Origin: an uncultured bacterium | GTDB taxonomy: Bacteria > Omnitrophota > Omnitrophia > Omnitrophales > Abzuiibacteriaceae | DNA: 64,000 nt | Assembly (NCBI GenBank): GCA_964387845.1 | Contig: CAYLXA010000004.1 | Span: forward strand, 32,001 to 96,000 | Direction of reading: 5' to 3' | In this document: piece by piece, positions 3,001 to 44,806 of the stretch | Position numbering within the stretch: the first letter of the stretch is position 1 | Layout: each line of letters begins with the position of its first letter | Translations under genes and position numbers: made by a program | Notes under the pieces: model-generated | The model's database searches: none | What the model saw: only the letters and a program-made list of their open reading frames with translations | What the model was told of the DNA's origin: nothing

Positions 3001-6000
3001 GGCTATGAACCTGATTTCGATAACGGGATTACAGGTGTCTTTACGTCTGAAAACCCAGTTTATGGAAAAGTGACCAGCTATGTTGTTCGTTCAAAGAATG
3101 GTGAAGTTCAATACTTGTTTAATGTGGATGAAGAAGGAAGAGTTTGGATTGGCGGCGTTCAAAGTACAAATCAAGAAATTAATAGGCAAGGCATTCTCTT
3201 GGATGGTTTACAAGTGAGCATGCCAGATATTCTGCTTACCCCGGTTTTTGAATATCATGAGCAAATTCCATCTGGGTATAGAGGTAATACAAATCCCAGA
3301 CACTCAAGTTATGCGGATGTAAGCGAGCTTATTGATGGCTTCTCCGTTGTCAAAGAATTCAGAGCGAAAGTTCTCCAGAATGAAACCGTTGCAAATCAAT
3401 TAAAAGCTGAACGAGACGCGGCGATTGACAATGCGGCGAAATTGGATGCAGATATAGATAATGTTATTCAGAGCGGAGATCCCATTAAGATTACGCAAGT
3501 CATCAAACTTTTAGCAGCTGCTGCTGAAAAGTATAACGGCTTGCAACAGCTTGGAGTGCCCTATGCTGAAATTCGTGATAAGCAGAATCAATTAAGAGGG
3601 AAGTATGAAAAAGTAAAGCAAATTTTCTTATCGCAGCAAGCAAAGAAAGAAACAGAAAAAGAAAAACCAATAGAAGAAGCTGTGAAGAAAGAATCAACAG
3701 AAAAACCTCATGCCGCCGAAGGAGCTGTCAAAGCGTGGACATCGTCTCTTACGGCGACGAAGCAACTTCTGAACCGGCTCAATATCCGCTTAGTTGAAGT
3801 CACACCGAATCCGGCTGAGCCGCACAAGACCGTTTTGCGCGCAATGGCGAAAGACGCCAATGATCAAAGCGCGATCACAATTGCCAAAGAAATTAATGCT
3901 GCGCTGGACGATTTCTTTGTGATTAATGGTTTTGACGCAAGCGTCCGCTTTGAAATTCAACAAGTAGAAGCGATTGTGAATATGGCATTCGGAAACGGTA
4001 TGTTCCACTTGCTGACGGCTGGTGTCGGTAAAAACGAAGTGATTTCACTCATTGCAGGCCGTATCGCGGTTAAAATCAGTGAGCAGATATCAGAAAAAAC
4101 CGAAGATGGAGAGATAAACCCTTCGTTTAATGCTTCATTGAAAGAGTTTTTGGAAAGCCGCAATATCAAAATTGGCGACCGATTTATCGTGGTTCTTCAC
4201 AATATTCCGCTCTTTGCGCAGGCTCGCGATGCGGCGACCATCGAGAAAGAAAAGGGCATTAAAGCGTACTTAGATTATTCCGGTGTTTCAATCGGCATAT
4301 TACGCGAAGATGACCTTTACACCATCCGCGAAAGCCCGGAAGCGGTTGACGCTGAAAAAGAATCCAAGAAAGAAAAAGATTCCATTGTTGAAAAAATCCG
4401 GAAATCACGCTTTATTTTGGCACAGGACGTCGCGCTTGATTTCTTGAATAATGATTACCGCGATCGCAAGGACGAAATAGATGATCGGGAATTTCTGCAG
4501 GAAATCGAGGATGAAGCTAAAGCGAATAACCAGGTTCTAGGTTCCGGGATGATCGAATCGCGCCTCAACAGCAAAAAGAAGAGCCAGAAAATGATGCTGG
4601 ACCTGTGGAATTCGCTTTTTGTGAATAACCGCTTTGTGTTTGACGAGGGCGACACTTCGCTTCAAAAAGAAGGCGTTCAAAAGATGACCGGCGGAGAAAA
4701 GCGTCTCAATTCCGTACAGGTGAAGATGCCGAATGTGATTGATACGGCCATCGGAAAGGTTTTGGGCAAATTGCAGCCCACGGAAAGATTGAAGCGTGAA
4801 AGAGAACTTCTGAAACTGGTTGTGAGAAAAACAGACGGTTCTGCACCGACCATCCGTTATAAAGATTGGGCTGCCAAAAAGACGGCCGCGCAAATCCGAA
4901 CGGAAGTTGAGAAGGAGTTGGGAGAGAAAGCGACCGCGCAGGAAATTGACGAAGCCATTCGCGAACGTTTCAAGGACGGTGATGCGCGAGGGACCATTAT
5001 CGATGCGCGGCTCGACCTTCCTTCGCATGAAGATTACACCAATGCTGCTGCCATGGCGATTGCGGCCAAACAAAAGGATACTGATCAATTGCAGGAGCTT
5101 GTGATGAAAACGCTCGGGCCGGCAAAAAATCAGGATCCCCAAATGCAGATGAGAATCATTCAGGCGGGCGTTTCTCAAATTGTAAAAATTGTTTCCCAAA
5201 ATGGAAAAGGGCCCAAAGCCGTCGAGAAAATTCTTGAAGCATTGCTCAACCTTCAGGGCGTGATGAACAATGATTCAGATAGGATGCTCGGATTTAAGAT
5301 CATTCAGGAAATCGCAAGCGCAATTGAAGAGGAGTTCCAAGGCAAGCAGGTAAAGCTCGAATGGTTCTTGATGACGGATGAGCAATTTAAGCAAGATAAA
5401 AGCGAGTTGAATTATGAGTTATGGCAGCAGGTTCATCATGCACGGGCATCACTTGTGGGCCGCGCGAACGCGCTCAAGCAATTTGAGCGTGAGCACATCA
5501 CCATCTATCAGGAAATTGTGGCGAAGAAAGTTCCGGGCAGAGATTATGAAAACGAGCTGATTAAGATGGGTGAGGAAACGAAAGAAAAGGTGCGTCAGCT
5601 TTTGGTGCTTGCTCACCAAAACGGTTTCTCGGAAGCTGAAATCGAACAGCTTGCAAGATCGAGCCGCGAAAGCCAGTTTAGGAAAGTGCCGCGTGCGCTT
5701 CGCGAGAAATTTGGAAAATCAATCAACGAAGCTGAAGCGCTCTGGGAATTTTTGAAGAATGCCGAATGGCTCTCTGAGATTTCTCATTTCACGCTCGAAG
5801 ACACCATCAAAGTCATGGCCGGCAGCGCTGTGGCGCCCCGCCTGCAGCAATCCGATCCTTATCTGGCAGCGCATACGCAGCTCGTGTTTATGCGGGATTA
5901 TGCCGAACAGGATCTGCTCCAGAAAAAGCGGACACATTTATTGATGATCGATGCGCAGGATATGCTGGAAAGGTTGGAGAACGCCGAAAGCCAAATTAAC

Positions 6001-26881: not shown

Positions 26882-28305
26882 TCTACGCGATCGGATCTTT
26901 TGCGATTACGGTTTTTAATTTCATTCTTTGGTTCCTAACCTTTTTTGGCCGCAAGTTAAGCGACCTTGCGCGCGCCTATTTTTGGTGGTCATTTTTTATC
27001 GCAATTTGGGCGTTCGGTTACGGCATTACGCTCGCCGGGTTTTTTGATTACGGCACAACGCTTGCCTGGAACCGGTTTTGCCAGTCGATGGCAATGCTAG
27101 TAGCGCCTTTCTTCTTTAAATATTGCGCGGTTTTGATTGACGAATATCCGAAATACGAAAAAATATTTCTTTCATATCTGACGCTCTCGGTCCTGATCGC
27201 CGCGGGCATTTTCGCAACGCCGCATTTTATCAGCGACCTTTGGTCATTCGGCATTTACCGGTATCAACCACTGGCCGGCCCATTTTATTTCCTGTATGTC
27301 AGCTTGTTTGCGCTTTGTGCGTTGCATGGATTCGCGCTTGTTTTGTCGCGATATAAGCAATTCGATGGCATTAAGAGAAGTCAAGCGCGGCTTTTTTTGA
27401 TTGCGACAGGAACATCTTATTTTGGTGGTTTTACACTTTTCATTCAGGCGCTCAGGATCCCACTTGATTCTTTTGGTATTTTTCTCGGCTTGACTTACGT
27501 GCTAATTACCGGCTACGCGATTCACAAATATCAATTTCTGGATTTTCCATCACTATTACGCACCAAAGAAGTCGTCGCGATCCACAATGAAAAACTCATG
27601 CTGCTCGGATTATTCTCTTCCAGTATTAATCATGAGCTCAAAAATCCTTTGTTTATGCTCCGCGAATTTGCGAAACGCCTTTTGACGATTGAAGCCGTCG
27701 CAAAGGGCGGCGAAGCGTCCGATATTGTCCGCAAGATGTCTGCTCAGATCAACCGGATTTCGGAGCTTGTGGAGCGTTCGCGCGATTTCATCCGGCCTGG
27801 CGGCGAAAATGCAATTGAGGATATTGACCTCGGGCAAGTGGTGGAAAACGCTTTGTTTTTTGCATCGACGGAGATGAAGTATCAAAATATCGAAGTCAAA
27901 ATTGATATTCCCGAAGGTCTGCCGGTCTTGCGCGGCGACAAAAGCCAGTTTGAAGTCATTTTTTTGAATTTGATTGTGAACGCCTATCACTCTATGCCGA
28001 ATGGCGGGAAATTGACGATTGAAGCACGAAGCGTCCCTCACCCTTTATCCCTCTCCCTCAGGGAGAGGGAGGAGCGAAGCGAGGGTGAGGGTGGTATTGA
28101 AGTAATCATTTCCGATTCCGGAACCGGTATCTCAAAAGAAAACCTCAAAAATATCTTCAAACCCTTCTACTCCACCAAAGGCAAACAAGGGACGGGCCTT
28201 GGCCTCCATATTGTGAAAACCTTGGTCGAACAGAATGGCGGCAAAATCTCAGTCGCAAGCGAAGTCGGGAAGGGCACACAATTCAAATTGGAATTTAAGG
28301 CATGA
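26878..28305 (+). CDS. Membrane sensor histidine kinase, paralog 1 of 4. Carries an in-frame REP-like insert in the HATPase loop.
   Basis: Multi-TM N-terminus. H box HELKNPL. N box NAYHSM, G1 SDSGTGI, G2 GTGLGL. Insert at 28035-28091. Confidence 0.8.
   Translation: MIYAIGSFAITVFNFILWFLTFFGRKLSDLARAYFWWSFFIAIWAFGYGITLAGFFDYGTTLAWNRFCQSMAMLVAPFFFKYCAVLIDEYPKYEKIFLSYLTLSVLIAAGIFATPHFISDLWSFGIYRYQPLAGPFYFLYVSLFALCALHGFALVLSRYKQFDGIKRSQARLFLIATGTSYFGGFTLFIQALRIPLDSFGIFLGLTYVLITGYAIHKYQFLDFPSLLRTKEVVAIHNEKLMLLGLFSSSINHELKNPLFMLREFAKRLLTIEAVAKGGEASDIVRKMSAQINRISELVERSRDFIRPGGENAIEDIDLGQVVENALFFASTEMKYQNIEVKIDIPEGLPVLRGDKSQFEVIFLNLIVNAYHSMPNGGKLTIEARSVPHPLSLSLREREERSEGEGGIEVIISDSGTGISKENLKNIFKPFYSTKGKQGTGLGLHIVKTLVEQNGGKISVASEVGKGTQFKLEFKA
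28035..28091. repeat. REP-like GC palindrome, in-frame in HK1. Encodes PHPLSLSLREREERSEGEGG.
   Basis: ccctcaccc tttat ccctctccc tca gggagaggg ... gggtgaggg. Confidence 0.8.
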
Positions 28306-29735
28306 ACATTGAAGAATTTTGCAGATTAACAGGACTGGTCAATTTTGTTTGTTGTTTGTTATTTGCAATATTCATTTTTTCAAAGAATCCGCGAGAAAGA
28401 ACCCATCAGATTTTTGCTTTGTTTTCATTTTTTGTTGCGCTGTGGTCATTCGGCTATTTTTGTTTTCATTCTTATAATGCCGACTACGAATCCGCAGATT
28501 TTTGGATCCGGTTCTTAACACTCGGTTGCTGTCCCATTCCGGCTGTTTTTCTGCATTTCGTGGTAACGCTTTTACAATTAAATGATCGCCCTCTCTATAA
28601 ATGGCTTGTTGGCTTTGCCTATATTTTCTTTTTCTCGTTGATTTTATTCTCACCAACTTCGTTAATGGTCGCAAGTCTTGAACCTAAACATTGGTACCGT
28701 TTATGGCCTAATCCGGGTTTTTTGTGGCATTTCTATACTGCAGGATTTTTTATCACCGTATTATTTTCTCATTACCTTTTATTTAGAGCCGCGTTTCACT
28801 CTACAGGAGTTCGTCGAAAGCAACTAATGCTGGTTGCCGTGGGAACTTTGATTACGTTTTCCGGCGGTTCTACCAATTTTTTTCTTTGGTATGATATCAC
28901 AATCGCTCCCGTGTTAAATGGGTTTGGAATTCTTTACATTATTATTGTTTTCTATGCGGTTCTGAATTATCAATTTTTACAGGTGGAAGATGTCCTGGCG
29001 ATTCATAGAGATAAACTGATGCTGCTAGGGCTTATGTCATCGAGTTTGACGCATGAAATCAAAAATCCTTTGTTTCTAGTCAAAGGCTATACGGATAAAA
29101 TTACGGCGTTGGCGCAAAAGAAAAACGACACCGAAATCGCAGATGCCCTCCGCCATCTTTCAAGCCAAGTTTCCCGAATGAGCACGCTTGTTACGCGGCT
29201 TAGCGATTTCGGAAAGCCAAATCCTAACCCGGGCAAACAGGAAGATGTGGATGTGGCCCAAGCACTCGAGGATGCCTTATTTTTTGCAGAGCAAGAACTC
29301 AAGCATCACAACATTGAAGTTGTAAAGAAAATCGAGCTCAATCTGCCAAAATTGAAGGGTGATAAGAGTCAATTTGAGGAAATATTCTTGAATTTAATTA
29401 TGAATGCATTCCATTCTATGAAGAATGGCGGGAAATTAACCATTGAAGCAAAAATCCCTCACCCACGCTCCGCGTTACCCTCTCCCTCAGGGAGAGGGGA
29501 GGGTGAGGGCGGTATTGAAGTAATTATTTCCGATTCCGGAACCGGAATATCGAAAGAAAACCTCAAAAATATCTTCAAACCCTTTTACTCAACGAAAGGC
29601 AAACAAGGGACGGGCCTCGGCCTTCACATCGTCAAAACTCTCGTCGAACAGAATAGTGGCAAGATCTCAGTCGAAAGCGAAGTGGGTAAGGGAACAAGAT
29701 TTAAACTTTTATTCAACGCAGAACTCAGAGTATGA
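28302..29735 (+). CDS. Membrane sensor histidine kinase, paralog 2 of 4. Carries an in-frame REP-like insert.
   Basis: HEIKNPLF H box. Same HATPase motifs as HK1. Insert at 29456-29509. Confidence 0.8.
   Translation: MNIEEFCRLTGLVNFVCCLLFAIFIFSKNPRERTHQIFALFSFFVALWSFGYFCFHSYNADYESADFWIRFLTLGCCPIPAVFLHFVVTLLQLNDRPLYKWLVGFAYIFFFSLILFSPTSLMVASLEPKHWYRLWPNPGFLWHFYTAGFFITVLFSHYLLFRAAFHSTGVRRKQLMLVAVGTLITFSGGSTNFFLWYDITIAPVLNGFGILYIIIVFYAVLNYQFLQVEDVLAIHRDKLMLLGLMSSSLTHEIKNPLFLVKGYTDKITALAQKKNDTEIADALRHLSSQVSRMSTLVTRLSDFGKPNPNPGKQEDVDVAQALEDALFFAEQELKHHNIEVVKKIELNLPKLKGDKSQFEEIFLNLIMNAFHSMKNGGKLTIEAKIPHPRSALPSPSGRGEGEGGIEVIISDSGTGISKENLKNIFKPFYSTKGKQGTGLGLHIVKTLVEQNSGKISVESEVGKGTRFKLLFNAELRV
29456..29509. 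repeat. REP-like GC palindrome, in-frame in HK2. Encodes PHPRSALPSPSGRGEGEGG.
   Basis: ccctcaccc ... ccctctccc tca gggagagggg a gggtgaggg. Confidence 0.8.
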
Positions 29736-40446: not shown

Positions 40447-40452
40447 AGAAAT

Positions 40453-40526
40453 CGTGCCTGGAGGGAATCGAACCCCCGACCCTGGGATTAGAAATCCCAT
40501 GCTCTATCCAACTGAGCTACAGGCAC
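40453..40526 (-). tRNA. tRNA-Arg (anticodon TCT)
   Basis: Reverse complement GTGCCTG-TA-GCTC-AGTTGGATA-GAGC-A-TGGGA-TTTCTAA-TCCCA-GGGTC-GGGGG-TTCGATT-CCCTC-CAGGCAC-G. A cloverleaf fold was done by hand. CCA is not encoded. Confidence 0.8.
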
Positions 40527-40592
40527 ATGGAATGGCAGACTTCTTAAAAATATAACTGATAAAAATCATAAGTAAAGCAAAGTTTTAAACCA

Positions 40593-41948: not shown

Positions 41949-42663
41949 GGAATTTTCTGCCCGGGATTTGCGCGGACGGTTTTTCGATTTCGACGCTGCG
42001 GGCTTCTTCTGCTATGACGGCTTGCCGGATTTTCGAAATGAATTCGGTTGTGTAATGGGAGAGTTGTAACGCACGGGCTTCCAGGCGCGCCAAAAACCAA
42101 TGATGAATCAAAAAGTATGGGATGGCCAAAATCAGCCCCGCGGCCGTTGTGATCATGGCGGCGTACATACCACCCGAAAGCTGGGCCACGGTGACGGAAG
42201 TGCCGAGCGCTTGCCACTCCTGAAAAGCGCCGATTAGGCCGATAATCGTTCCCAAGAAACCGAGGAGCGGCAGGACGGTTACGAGGGCGCCGAGGAGCTT
42301 GATTCCGGATTCCAGGCGGAAGATAATTTCATCGCCCGTTAATTTAACCGCTTCTTCGACGGCGTGCAGGTCGGTTAAAGATTTTCCGATTTCGGCGAAT
42401 CCTGCGCTGAAAATTTCGGAAATCGGGTGCTTAAAATTTCGGCAAATAATTTGCGCTTGCGGCCAGTCGCGCCGCCGGATGGATTCGGAAATGCCGGCCA
42501 AAAACATCGGCGACACATTCGAGAGCCGGGCGAGCGAGAAAAGTTTTTCGACGACAATCGACAGCGCAATGAGTGAGACGATCCCGATCGGGATCATCAC
42601 CGGGCCGCCAAGAATAATGTAATGGAGCATGGGTAATATCTTAACAAAATGGACGAGAAACAT
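41938..42663 (-). CDS. exbB: MotA/TolQ/ExbB proton-channel family protein.
   Basis: Three TM helices. LGTIIGLIGAF motif. Overlaps exbD. Confidence 0.75.
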   Translation of the reverse strand: MFLVHFVKILPMLHYIILGGPVMIPIGIVSLIALSIVVEKLFSLARLSNVSPMFLAGISESIRRRDWPQAQIICRNFKHPISEIFSAGFAEIGKSLTDLHAVEEAVKLTGDEIIFRLESGIKLLGALVTVLPLLGFLGTIIGLIGAFQEWQALGTSVTVAQLSGGMYAAMITTAAGLILAIPYFLIHHWFLARLEARALQLSHYTTEFISKIRQAVIAEEARSVEIEKPSAQIPGRKFHAI

Positions 42664-44232
42664 AAACTGTTAAAATCGGTCGGGAAGGTAGGTGCGCTGA
42701 CGACCTTGAGCCGGATTCTGGGTTACGGCCGTGACGCAGTGCTGGCGGCGGTTTTGGGCGCGGGGCTTGGTATGGATGCCTTCGCGATCGCATTCCGTAT
42801 CGCAAACCTCTTCCGGCGTCTCTTGGGCGAAGGCGCAATGACAGCCGCTTTTGTGCCGGTGCTTACGCAATACCGCGAAGAGCATACCAACGAAGAAACC
42901 TGGGACTTTGTTTCCAAATTTTTCTACACGCTTGCTTTGATGTTGGCGGGGTTGGTCGTACTGCAGATCATCTTTGCGCCCTGGATTGTCCGGATCATGT
43001 CGCCCGGTTTCGGCGAAATTGAGGGGAAGTGGGCGCTTACGACATTCCTCAACCGGATGATGGCGCCTTATTTGTTTTTTGTGGGCTTGGCCGCGCTTTT
43101 GATGGCAATTCTAAATTCACTCAGAAGCTACGCCGTTTCGGCGGCAAACCCGATTTTCTTCAATCTGGCGGTGATTGCATCCGCTTTCACGATTTCGCAA
43201 TTGTTCAGCGAGCCTGCTGTCGGTATTTCGCTCGGGGTTTTATTCGGCGGATTTCTGCAGATGGCGGTCCAAATCCCCGAAGCACGCAAAAAGGGAATGA
43301 TTTTTAAACCCGCCGTTTCTTTTTCACATCCCGAAATCCGAAAAATCGCATCGCTCATGGGCCCCGGCGTTGTCGGCATCGGCATTTATCAACTGAATTT
43401 GTTTGTCGACTCCATCGTGGGGTCTCTGCTTGTGGAGGGAAGCGTTTCGGCACTTTATTATTCAAACCGCGTTGTGGAGCTTGTGCAGGGAATCTTTGTC
43501 ATTTCATTTGCGACCGTTATTTTGACCGAAATGTCAAAACATGCGGCCGAGAAAAATCACGACGCGATGCGCGAGACGCTTTCGTTTTCACTCCGCATGT
43601 CCGCATTCGTGACGATCCCGGCATCGTTCGGTTTGATGGTGCTCGCATATCCGATTACACAGATTTTATTTGAGCGCGGTGAATTTACAGCGGAAGATAC
43701 CGCGCGTTCTGCGTTTGCGCTCATGTTTTACGCCGTCGGAATTTGTTTTGTTGCAGGTGCACGCATTATGGTGCAGGCGTTTTATGCCGTTCAGGACACC
43801 AAAACACCCGTCAAAGCAGCGTTTGTTTCTTTGATTGTCAATGTCATCGGCAACATTCTTTTGATCGGACTTTTGGCGCAGGGCGGTATCGCACTTGCGA
43901 CCTCGATCGCAGCAGCAGTTAATTTTTTCCAGCTTCTCATGATTTACGAAAAGCGCTTCGGCAAACTGGACTGGGCTCCACTTCGGGAAAGTTTGGTCAA
44001 GATCTTGAGCCAGACGGCCGCCATGGTGCTTGCATGCTTTCTGTTTTTGAATCTGCTTCGGTACTCGAAAGACGGCCTATTTTTCACGAATACCGTGGCG
44101 TTATTCGTCACGATTTTTCTGGGTTTAGCAATTTATTTGGGTGCCGCACTACTTCTCAATTCACAGGAATTAGCAGCGATTAGGAGGGGAAAACGTCCAC
44201 CTATGCCCCCGCCGGCTTCTGAATCGCACTAG
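42649..44232 (+). CDS. murJ: Lipid II flippase MurJ (MviN).
   Basis: N-terminal LSRILGYGRDAVLAAVLGAG ... DAFAIAFRIANLFRRLLGEGA signature. 14 TM helices. Confidence 0.85.
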   Translation: MDEKHKLLKSVGKVGALTTLSRILGYGRDAVLAAVLGAGLGMDAFAIAFRIANLFRRLLGEGAMTAAFVPVLTQYREEHTNEETWDFVSKFFYTLALMLAGLVVLQIIFAPWIVRIMSPGFGEIEGKWALTTFLNRMMAPYLFFVGLAALLMAILNSLRSYAVSAANPIFFNLAVIASAFTISQLFSEPAVGISLGVLFGGFLQMAVQIPEARKKGMIFKPAVSFSHPEIRKIASLMGPGVVGIGIYQLNLFVDSIVGSLLVEGSVSALYYSNRVVELVQGIFVISFATVILTEMSKHAAEKNHDAMRETLSFSLRMSAFVTIPASFGLMVLAYPITQILFERGEFTAEDTARSAFALMFYAVGICFVAGARIMVQAFYAVQDTKTPVKAAFVSLIVNVIGNILLIGLLAQGGIALATSIAAAVNFFQLLMIYEKRFGKLDWAPLRESLVKILSQTAAMVLACFLFLNLLRYSKDGLFFTNTVALFVTIFLGLAIYLGAALLLNSQELAAIRRGKRPPMPPPASESH

Positions 44233-44289
44233 CCGATCAATTTCCGTCATTGGCTTTTTAGTTCTATTATCGTAAAATAGCGGTTTCGC

Positions 44290-44404
44290 GGTGACCGTAG
44301 CTTCCGCCACAAATCGTGGCGGACCCGCCGCGCAGTATGGCGGGCAATCTGGTCGTCATCAAAGATGACGACTCGATTTCGCTGCGCACAAGTCGAATGA
44401 TTAT
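44290..44404 (+). other. Duplicated 5' fragment of tRNA-His (ggtgaccgtagct) followed by three tandem perfect hairpins, immediately upstream of the intact tRNA-His.
   Basis: The 13 nt at 44290-44302 are identical to the tRNA 5' end at 44405-44417. Hairpins: tccgccacaaatcgtggcgga, cccgcc..ggcggg, tcgtcatcaaagatgacga. Confidence 0.5.
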
Positions 44405-44483
44405 GGTGACCGTAGCTCAATCTGGTTAGAGCACAAGATTGTGGATCTTGGGGTTGCGGGTTCAATTCCCGTCGGTCACCCCA
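44405..44483 (+). tRNA. tRNA-His (anticodon GTG) with G-1 and encoded CCA.
   Basis: G-GTGACCG-TA-GCTC-AATCTGGTTA-GAGC-A-CAAGA-TTGTGGA-TCTTG-GGGTT-GCGGG-TTCAATT-CCCGT-CGGTCAC-C-CCA. Confidence 0.85.
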
Positions 44484-44806
44484 TTTGCCTTGAGCTCGAT
44501 TTGGTGCCAATCTCAAGGCAAATGGTGCTATCGCATTAAAAATCAAAAACAATTTTGGGAGGCGATTGCCCCCACACTCCGGACCCCGCCCCACGTTTTT
44601 AAAGTTGTTTGATCCTCTTAGAAAAGGCGAGAATTGGCTCCAGAAGGAGCAAAACAACGACGCGGGCAAATAAAAAGCATACCTCAGCCTGGAAACGGGG
44701 TTGCTTGGCTTTGCCAAGACTGCCATCAATTCTCGTCTGCCTCAGATAATCCCATTTCAATACAGATAAAATCCACTCTTTTTAAGAGAATAATTTGAAA
44801 AAATCA

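Follow-up and report, generated by a model that had tools for sequence, protein, structure and literature searches.

What is a fragment of a tRNA doing directly in front of the intact gene? In the window, by which we mean the whole 64-kb stretch of DNA analysed here, the first nucleotides of a tRNA-His gene recur upstream of it, and hairpins lie between the two copies. The original prediction, made from this DNA alone, offered three readings of the arrangement: the scar of an integration or excision event, a leader structure that affects tRNA processing, or a tRNA-like fragment. We give a little better than an even chance to the reading that 44290-44404 is a transcribed and structured 5'-leader module of the tRNA-His precursor, which originated by partial duplication, belongs to an Omnitrophota-clade family of 'self-mimicking' leaders, and locks or insulates the folding of the tRNA. 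The family of self-mimicking tRNA leader modules is clade-specific and previously undescribed, and literature searches returned no account of leaders of this kind.

In bacteria, the leaders of pre-tRNAs tend to be regarded as short disposable spacers. A conserved modular leader, in some genomes repeated in tandem, that copies the 5' end of its tRNA, including the His-specific G-1, and whose copy changes along with that tRNA would be a new kind of cis element for tRNA maturation, and it would add at least one RNA family that is missing from Rfam.

A copy of the tRNA-His 5' end between a candidate promoter and the gene

The locus contains the following features.

42649-44232, upstream of the unit: murJ (Pfam MurJ, E = 4e-122)
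44250-44278, plus strand: candidate sigma-70-like promoter, TTGGCT, 17-nt spacer, TAAAAT, with 9/12 consensus matches
44290-44302, plus strand: block 1 of the pseudo 5' end, GGTGACCGTAGCT, an exact copy of tRNA-His G-1 to U12
44345-44353, plus strand: block 2 of the pseudo 5' end, CAATCTGGT, a copy of tRNA D-loop positions 13-20 found by the repeat finder
44405-44483, plus strand: intact tRNA-His(GTG), with G-1 (44405), C73 (44480) and CCA (44481-83) all encoded

The tRNA-His(GTG) gene was called by ARAGORN at 44405/44406-44483 and scored 67.6 bits with the Rfam tRNA model, and its G-1:C73 pair is encoded. As the original prediction had reported, the 13 nt GGTGACCGTAGCT repeat the 5' end of this gene; the 64-kb window contains them at two places and no others, 44290-44302 and 44405-44417 (tRNA-His positions -1 to 12). 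The possibility, raised at the same time, that such a 13-mer might be frequent by chance was not borne out, with 0.02 matches in shuffles when one mismatch was allowed.

The 9 nt that come next in the tRNA (44418-44426) are repeated collinearly at 44345-44353 as CAATCTGGT. This D-loop block had been overlooked, and it extends the upstream copy beyond 13 nt. The copy thus covers tRNA positions -1 to 20 (the first 22 bases), interrupted between positions 12 and 13 by a 42-nt insert that consists of the hairpins hp1 and hp2. The hairpin-rich leader unit is about 115 nt long (44290-44404), and 102 nt without an ORF separate the two repeats. A minus-strand ORF called over the region (44247-44729, 160 codons), which the original prediction had already distrusted, spans the whole tRNA and has no Pfam match. 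A 7-mer, GCACAAG, common to 44386-92 and 44431-37 was set aside as a probable chance match; it overlaps the 3' strand of the closing helix P1 described below and is absent in the related locus L018.

The promoter-like site, a candidate by consensus match only, ends 11 nt before the pseudo copy, which places the 115-nt unit in the pre-tRNA leader. In relatives, murJ is followed by the promoter-like TTGATTTTT..TATAAT, to which the window's site corresponds. By reading, L001, L022, L035 and L005 have a TATAAT hexamer at a distance of about 20-27 nt from the G-1, real or pseudo, that comes after it, and L001, L022 and L035 a TTGATT-like -35 element ahead of it (no tool call). In L005 the G-1 that comes after this murJ-proximal TATAAT is the pseudo one; in L001, L022 and L035 it is the real one. 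Promoter-like sites also precede the arrays of L018 (15 nt before the first unit) and L025, and promoter scans of L007, L012 and L020 gave no convincing promoter ahead of the arrays. Downstream of tRNA-His in the window are genes for an Rrf2 regulator and a sulfate ABC transporter.

Predicted fold of the leader

The three hairpins of the original prediction were confirmed, and two further parts of the leader could be assigned.

44303-44323, plus strand: hp1, TCCGCCAC-aaatc-GTGGCGGA, 8 bp and a 5-nt loop
44324-44344, plus strand: hp2, CCCGCC-gcgcagtat-GGCGGG, 6 perfect bp
44352-44372 (44351-44373 with the closing G.U pair), plus strand: hp3, 9 perfect bp and the 3-nt loop AAA
44381-44389, plus strand: 3' strand of the closing helix P1, GCTGCG + CAC
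44390-44404, plus strand: A/T-rich leader tail, which ends in TTAT directly before the RNase P site

Hairpin hp3 can be extended by pairing of AATC (44346-49) with GATT (44375-78). The P1 3' strand GCTGCG-CAC has its partners in the pseudo copy, CGTAGC (44296-44301) and GTG (44291-44293), a pairing that had been overlooked, and P1 closes hp1-hp3 into a four-way junction. Since this strand is complementary to the pseudo copy, it is also complementary to the real 5' strand of the tRNA, and we refer to it as the anti-5' segment. The fold of the leader (44285-44404) has a predicted energy of -57.5 kcal/mol, compared with -37.9 +/- 3.6 kcal/mol for shuffles (z = -5.4).

The notion of a tRNA-like fragment holds in part. 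The leader does carry a copy of tRNA positions -1 to 20, but it is not a cloverleaf: neither ARAGORN nor the Rfam tRNA model found one in 44290-44404, even at E <= 10. Separately encoded 5' portions of tRNAs are known from the split tRNA genes and tRNA halves of Nanoarchaeum equitans (PMC3491384). The present case shares that feature and differs in that an intact tRNA-His follows at once, trans-splicing helices are absent and the host is a bacterium. A bulge-helix-bulge or intron reading, with 115 nt removed and the copy joined to the tRNA body, was ruled out by the presence of the intact tRNA; besides, bacteria to our knowledge lack the splicing endonuclease of bulge-helix-bulge introns.

Known RNA classes gave no match. 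A search of Rfam 15, including its self-cleaving ribozymes, reported only tRNA for the window leader and the L020 leader at E <= 10, and at the gathering threshold only tRNA was found across 11 loci. Hammerhead, HDV-like, twister and hatchet cores and topologies were compared by eye with the type A and type B units introduced below, and none fits. No terminator-like site (a GC-rich hairpin followed by a U tract) was found within 44285-44404.

Units at tRNA-His loci of other Omnitrophota

A scan with the 47-nt tRNA-His core, using one genome per species, gave 21 Omnitrophota loci. Together with those derived from MurJ these made 24 distinct loci, and a last MurJ lookup added two more, among them L037, to give 26 distinct tRNA-His loci. 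The best MurJ relatives and all genomes with a match to the tRNA core were Omnitrophota/Omnitrophica metagenome-assembled genomes. Units, one to three at each locus, were present at 8 of the 26.

As a measure of the copying, the 310 nt upstream of the tRNA at 7 of the 24 loci contained, in all, 12 exact copies of the locus's own G-1 to G7 8-mer, where chance would give about 0.2 (our own arithmetic, 24 x 600 / 4^8). At 7 of the 8 unit-bearing loci, all units but one begin with an exact copy of the 5' strand of their own tRNA. The eighth, L037, carries a near copy, in which block 1 differs at 2 of 13 positions. The window unit begins with a copy of G-1 to G7 of its own tRNA and lies between promoter and tRNA. 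The units could be sorted into four types.

Type A: L012 (two units), L020 (two units), L018 (distal unit)
Type B: window, L018 (proximal unit), L005, L037
Type C: L007 (two units), a diverged type A according to the type-A covariance model
Type D: L025, 3.2 copies of a 96-nt repeat with 97% identity (TRF)

Type A units consist of GGTGAGCG, the hairpin hpA, AAGCAG, the hairpin hpB, and then GCTCA, which pairs back to TGAGC. L018 stacks both types, with A distal and B proximal. L005, whose MurJ is 66% identical to that of the window, has the window's layout: GGTGACTGTAGCT, two hairpins, CAATTTGGTT, a tail, and an intact tRNA that starts with GGTGACTGTAGCTCAATTTGGTT, the copy bearing L005's own tRNA variants. 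The type-B model R2 gave 117 bits for the window, 121 for L018 and 76 for L005, scores to be read with the fact that it was built from these same three sequences.

The units differ in elaboration. Two additional helices, homologous between L012 and L020, are nested within the hpA loop of their distal type-A units, and the distal unit of L020 carries others in the hpB loop and at a junction. The distal unit seems to have grown by accretion of helices at loops, the proximal 85-nt unit having stayed minimal. The units of L005 and L037 are without hp3 and P1, and together with the two mismatches in block 1 of L037 this suggests decay.

Some relatives have no unit at all. In L001, the closest relative with DNA available (MurJ 78% identical), murJ is followed by TTGATT..TATAAT, about 20 nt, and the real tRNA-His; L022 and L035 show the same layout. 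To judge from these three close relatives, the unit is dispensable. A metagenome scan with the type-B pattern re-found only the L018 and L005 sequences, and a search for close relatives with MurJ in genome contigs gave no matches.

Conservation of the fold and agreement of the copy with its own tRNA

The order murJ-tRNA-His is syntenic in the window, L005, L012, L018 and L020, where the MurJ proteins are 52-66% identical. Type-A units are 79-91% identical between genomes, whereas the 120-nt flanks of the array or tRNA are at the level of shuffled sequence (0.57-0.62). For type B, the window and L018 units are identical at 0.73, compared with 0.58 when shuffled. The changes within the units largely respect the predicted stems.

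Type A: 97.7% of cells paired; 3 pairs changed in both partners; level reached by 10 of 500 shuffles
Type B: 98.6% of cells paired; 6 pairs changed in both partners; level reached by 2 of 500 shuffles

These figures come from a small sample (four type B units, and five type A units from three genomes), the structures tested were derived from the same alignments, and the shuffle controls are not to be read as probabilities. Slid controls gave 26-57% paired cells. The double-changed pairs of type A include a C-G, U.G, U-A series. In type B, hp3 of the window is replaced in L018 by CGCCGC-aggat-GCGGCG, with four double compensatory pairs; the positional homologue of hp1 has a different stem sequence in L018, L005 and L037, that of hp2 in L037 is CCCGCCAtgctgtgTGGCGGG, and GCTACG stands at the position of the P1 3' strand in L018. 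G.U pairs made up 7 of 70 cells in type B and 9 of 130 in type A. On the opposite strand these would be A.C mismatches, indicating that the folded strand is the tRNA-sense transcript.

The copy also keeps in step with its own tRNA. The following variants are the same in tRNA and unit at each locus.

Window: acceptor positions 4-6 ACC; D-loop CT
L005: acceptor positions 4-6 ACT; D-loop TT
L018: acceptor positions 4-6 AGC; D-loop CT
L037: acceptor positions 4-6 GGC; D-loop one base shorter

Block 1 is identical to the own tRNA in L005 and L018, and in L037 it agrees at the variable positions 4-6. The D-loop copy of L037, CAATTGGTT, reproduces the D-loop of the L037 tRNA, which is 1 nt shorter. 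In L025 the most distal copy alone is out of step (GGTGAGCG vs GGTGGGCG). Unequal recombination or array turnover could homogenise the 5' block, and the L025 pattern agrees with this. The 9-nt D-loop block, with non-homologous sequence on both sides, is not readily accounted for in this way. It is mainly because that block tracks its own tRNA despite such flanks that we infer that the match matters at the level of RNA.

Similar mimicry in tRNA-Arg leaders and free-standing folds

Leaders that mimic their tRNA were also found before tRNA-Arg(TCT).

L005, about 735-792: tRNA-Arg(TCT) leader mimic
L004, about 477-644: tRNA-Arg(TCT) leader mimics, two units
L020, 1632-1759: tRNA-Arg(TCT) leader mimic

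Each of them has the first 7 nt of the tRNA, a hairpin, and a near copy of the 3' acceptor strand, and these parts form an acceptor-stem minihelix in which pair 6:67 is mismatched in every case. They resemble the acceptor/T-arm minihelix and tRNA-like structures in having both acceptor strands, a 7-bp helix and a hairpin cap. They differ in that the Arg units are without CCA, lie in a leader and have the mismatched 6:67 pair; the window's His unit, for its part, has no copy of the 3' strand. In L020 the Arg minihelix is preceded by a type-A-like core of hpA' and hpB (E about 5e-7), and the hpB hairpin CAGTACTCGCGCAT.AGCGCGAGTG is common to the His and Arg leaders of that genome. The window's own tRNA-Arg (40452-40527, minus strand) has no unit.

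In L023, free-standing type-A three-way-junction folds occur on the minus strand at 1698-1786 and 1838-1922, with 29 and 20 bits by model R1. Their P1 is not a copy of a tRNA. Terminator-like hairpins stand on either side of them, in the region past the gene that comes next after tRNA-His. They are possibly an independent small RNA, and a type-A-like fold without a tRNA copy implies that fold and mimicry may be separable.

Alternative explanations for the leader unit

The main rival reading holds that the unit is a neutral by-product: slippage or unequal recombination duplicated the leader and the tRNA 5' end, palindromes grew in the dead copy, and the result is transcribed junk that stays matched to the tRNA solely through turnover by duplication and deletion among direct repeats. 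Near-identical tandem units within the L007 and L025 arrays (97% by TRF in L025) do point to recent amplification that may be neutral, the L025 exception affects only the most distal copy, as array turnover predicts, and the absence of the unit in L001, L022 and L035 and the partly decayed look of the L005 and L037 units fit it too. We nevertheless regard this reading as rather unlikely. Type-A units retain their 79-91% identity, and type B its layout, despite randomised flanks and MurJ identities of 52-66%; the stems show compensatory changes and strand-specific G.U pairs; and slippage is a poor explanation for a 9-nt D-loop block with non-homologous flanks that tracks its own tRNA, including an indel.

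A non-autonomous mobile module would account for several of the same facts in another way. Here a structured element would insert into the 5' part of the tRNA and bring a replacement leader and 5' end at its 3' side, so that the tRNA survives and repeated insertion into the intact proximal copy builds arrays. The stacking of A and B units in L018 would follow, as would the extra helices of the distal units in L012 and L020 if distal is read as older. The hairpin CAGTACTCGCGCAT.AGCGCGAGTG in both the His and the Arg leaders of L020, the type-A-like fold elsewhere in L023 and a Y1 (IS200-like) transposase gene after murJ in L034 also speak for mobility. The units, however, have no terminal inverted repeats, ordinary target duplication or linked transposase or reverse transcriptase, neither the 64-kb window nor about 250 kb of sequence from relatives shows dispersed copies of their hairpins, and the units occupy the orthologous position across deep divergence, which makes this reading decidedly improbable.

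A scar left at tRNA-His by the integration or excision of a mobile element, in the manner of an attL/attR remnant, was the first suggestion of the original prediction, and we now consider it very improbable. The arrangement resembles att sites in that a partial tRNA copy stands as a direct repeat beside the intact gene and its presence varies among relatives. Known att repeats at tRNA genes duplicate the 3' part of the tRNA and bracket kilobases of element DNA with an integrase. Here the repeat is G-1 to U12 plus positions 13-20, the 5' end, and the interval is 102 nt of hairpins without a credible ORF, set between promoter and tRNA and showing RNA-type covariation. An inserted island was looked for, and in all 8 unit-bearing genomes the interval from copy to tRNA is free of elements and ORFs. 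The comparison with relatives that had been proposed as a check gave a mixed result, with the arrangement conserved over deep divergence in L005, L018 and L037, and empty sites in L001, L022 and L035. The locus is indeed an integration hot spot in relatives, with a serine recombinase in L001 and recombinase-like genes in L005 and L035, and the tRNA-His of L008 is truncated at position 8. But L001 has the recombinase without the unit, and the window has the unit without a recombinase among the neighbouring genes. Furthermore, the unit had no blastn match among phages and plasmids, and a scan of viral contigs for the tRNA core gave 0 matches.

The slightest chance of all is that REP/BIME-type palindromes landed beside the tRNA by accident: the tandem GC-rich perfect hairpins, a GTAG just 5' of hp1 and a REP-like family with five copies in the window invite the comparison, but hp1-hp3 are single-copy in the 64-kb window, unlike that dispersed family, and the 13+9-nt tRNA copy and its tracking of its own tRNA would be left unexplained. 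The leader hairpins likewise differ from RAYT/Y1-mobilised REP/BIME elements, which share the tandem GC-rich intergenic hairpins, in having no family sequence, in being strand-specific through their G.U pairs and in being tied to a tRNA copy. The REP-like family consists of perfect hairpins of the form (T)CCCTCTCCC-loop-GGGAGAGGG(A), and its motif is also present in the tRNA-Arg leader of L001.

15272-15296: REP-like hairpin
15656-15678: REP-like hairpin
16216-16239: REP-like hairpin
28048-28070: REP-like hairpin
29478-29498: REP-like hairpin

Proposed mechanism and possible role of the leader module

In the self-mimicking leader module that we favour, each unit opens with a copy of the 5' acceptor strand of its own tRNA, including G-1, and in type B with a copy of the whole of positions -1 to 20. 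It would have arisen by partial tandem duplication of the leader and the 5' part of the tRNA, and units would be gained, contracted or lost through recombination between short direct repeats. The unit is predicted to fold into a compact multi-hairpin junction whose P1 uses part of the copy. The leader would be co-transcribed with the tRNA and removed by an RNase P cut at 44404/44405.

Four segments are then of interest: the pseudo 5' strand (1), the anti-5' strand (2), the real 5' strand (3) and the 3' strand of the acceptor (4). Pairing of 1 with 2 and of 3 with 4 would give a locked leader domain and a normal cloverleaf, and pairing of 1 with 4 and of 2 with 3 the alternative state. By holding segment 1 during transcription, the hairpin junction may insulate or time the folding and processing of the tRNA. 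An alternative-pairing switch or an insulator that acts on maturation by RNase P is a plausible role. The original suggestion of a leader structure that affects tRNA processing is favoured as to location and structure, and such a structure may also have an effect on processing.

Folding calculations place the two states close together. For 44285-44483 the minimum free energy structure is the 1:2 + 3:4 state (-88.3 kcal/mol), and for a transcript that starts at 44290 it is the 1:4 + 2:3 state (-87.7 kcal/mol), so that the states are near isoenergetic. In the ensemble the pseudo copy is the likelier partner of the acceptor 3' strand (probability 0.54, against 0.36 for the real strand), and the distal copy was favoured at 0.79-0.98 in 5 of 6 relatives tested (all but L025), in thermodynamic models that take no account of co-transcriptional order or of tRNA tertiary structure, each of which favours the native state.

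A more far-reaching version supposes that the precursor is bistable. The pseudo 5' end would stay matched to its tRNA because it is a pairing partner of the acceptor 3' strand, as the D-loop copy would be of the T-loop. RNase P would release normal tRNA-His from one state; in the other the upstream copy would close a giant tRNA-like fold, with the effect that maturation is delayed or gated, or that a long tRNA-like RNA with its own role is formed. We consider a bistable precursor of this kind unlikely, and it is similarly unlikely that the alternative state is used to gate tRNA maturation. Were the precursor bistable in this way, tRNA biogenesis would have its first natural 'anti-anti-acceptor' switch encoded in a leader, tandem units would act as graded competitors, and the principle would extend to tRNA-Arg.

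Several known systems offer partial parallels. Synthetic RNase P riboswitches hide or expose the pre-tRNA leader (PMC7897497), and pairing of the leader with the 3' RCCA inhibits bacterial RNase P (PMC9433436). As in attenuators of the trp/his type and in RNase P riboswitches, alternative pairings of a 5' leader could decide whether a downstream helix, here the acceptor stem, is formed and processed; in contrast to them, the present leader has no ligand, leader peptide or terminator. It also departs from four-segment switches in that segments 1 and 3 are identical and the states are symmetric, and switching is a thermodynamic prediction. The 199-nt transcript together with RNase P would make a cheap test system for whether nature uses alternative acceptor-stem pairing for tRNA supply. 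For annotators, the locus is a warning against taking every 5' tRNA fragment next to a tRNA gene for an att scar.

Other features of the tRNA-His locus in the window and in relatives

In relatives, integration at this locus is on the 3' side of the tRNA, and the window has no such element. The 3' side of tRNA-His looks like an integration hot spot in these genomes, with the following genes.

L001, 4720-6507, and L002, 3978-5765, minus strand: large serine recombinase (Resolvase + Recombinase + Zn_ribbon_recom, 595 aa), abutting or overlapping the tRNA-His 3' end
L035, 3092-3925, minus strand: 277-aa gene with a weak Zn_ribbon_recom match, overlapping the tRNA call
L005, 4815-5123, minus strand: unannotated 102-aa gene at the contig end, abutting or overlapping the tRNA-His 3' end

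L001 and L005 have a common 3' flank (..CTTTTRACCCG..GCGAACACTG..), and their tRNAs are without an encoded CCA. In L034, a gene for a 195-aa Y1 (IS200-like, PF01797) transposase (3196-3783) lies directly after murJ, in the place that tRNA-His has in the window, and no tRNA was found on that contig end.

In L008 (1060-1200, minus strand), identity to tRNA-His begins only at position 8 (TAGCTCAAT...), and the 5' acceptor strand is replaced by TTTTCATGG+ATGGCAC... By reading, this truncated tRNA-His is downstream of an apparent small ORF of the CopG/antitoxin type. It is possibly a displaced att fragment or a disrupted gene.

The 3' trailer of the window's tRNA-His also contains a hairpin.

44481-44525, plus strand: 3' trailer hairpin, CCATTTGCCTTGAG / CTCAAGGCAAATGG, 14 perfect bp, a 17-nt loop and no U tract

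This hairpin starts exactly at the CCA of the tRNA and would sequester it in the precursor, and the window trailer shares GCCTTGAGC and GATTTGGTGCCA with the trailer of L008.
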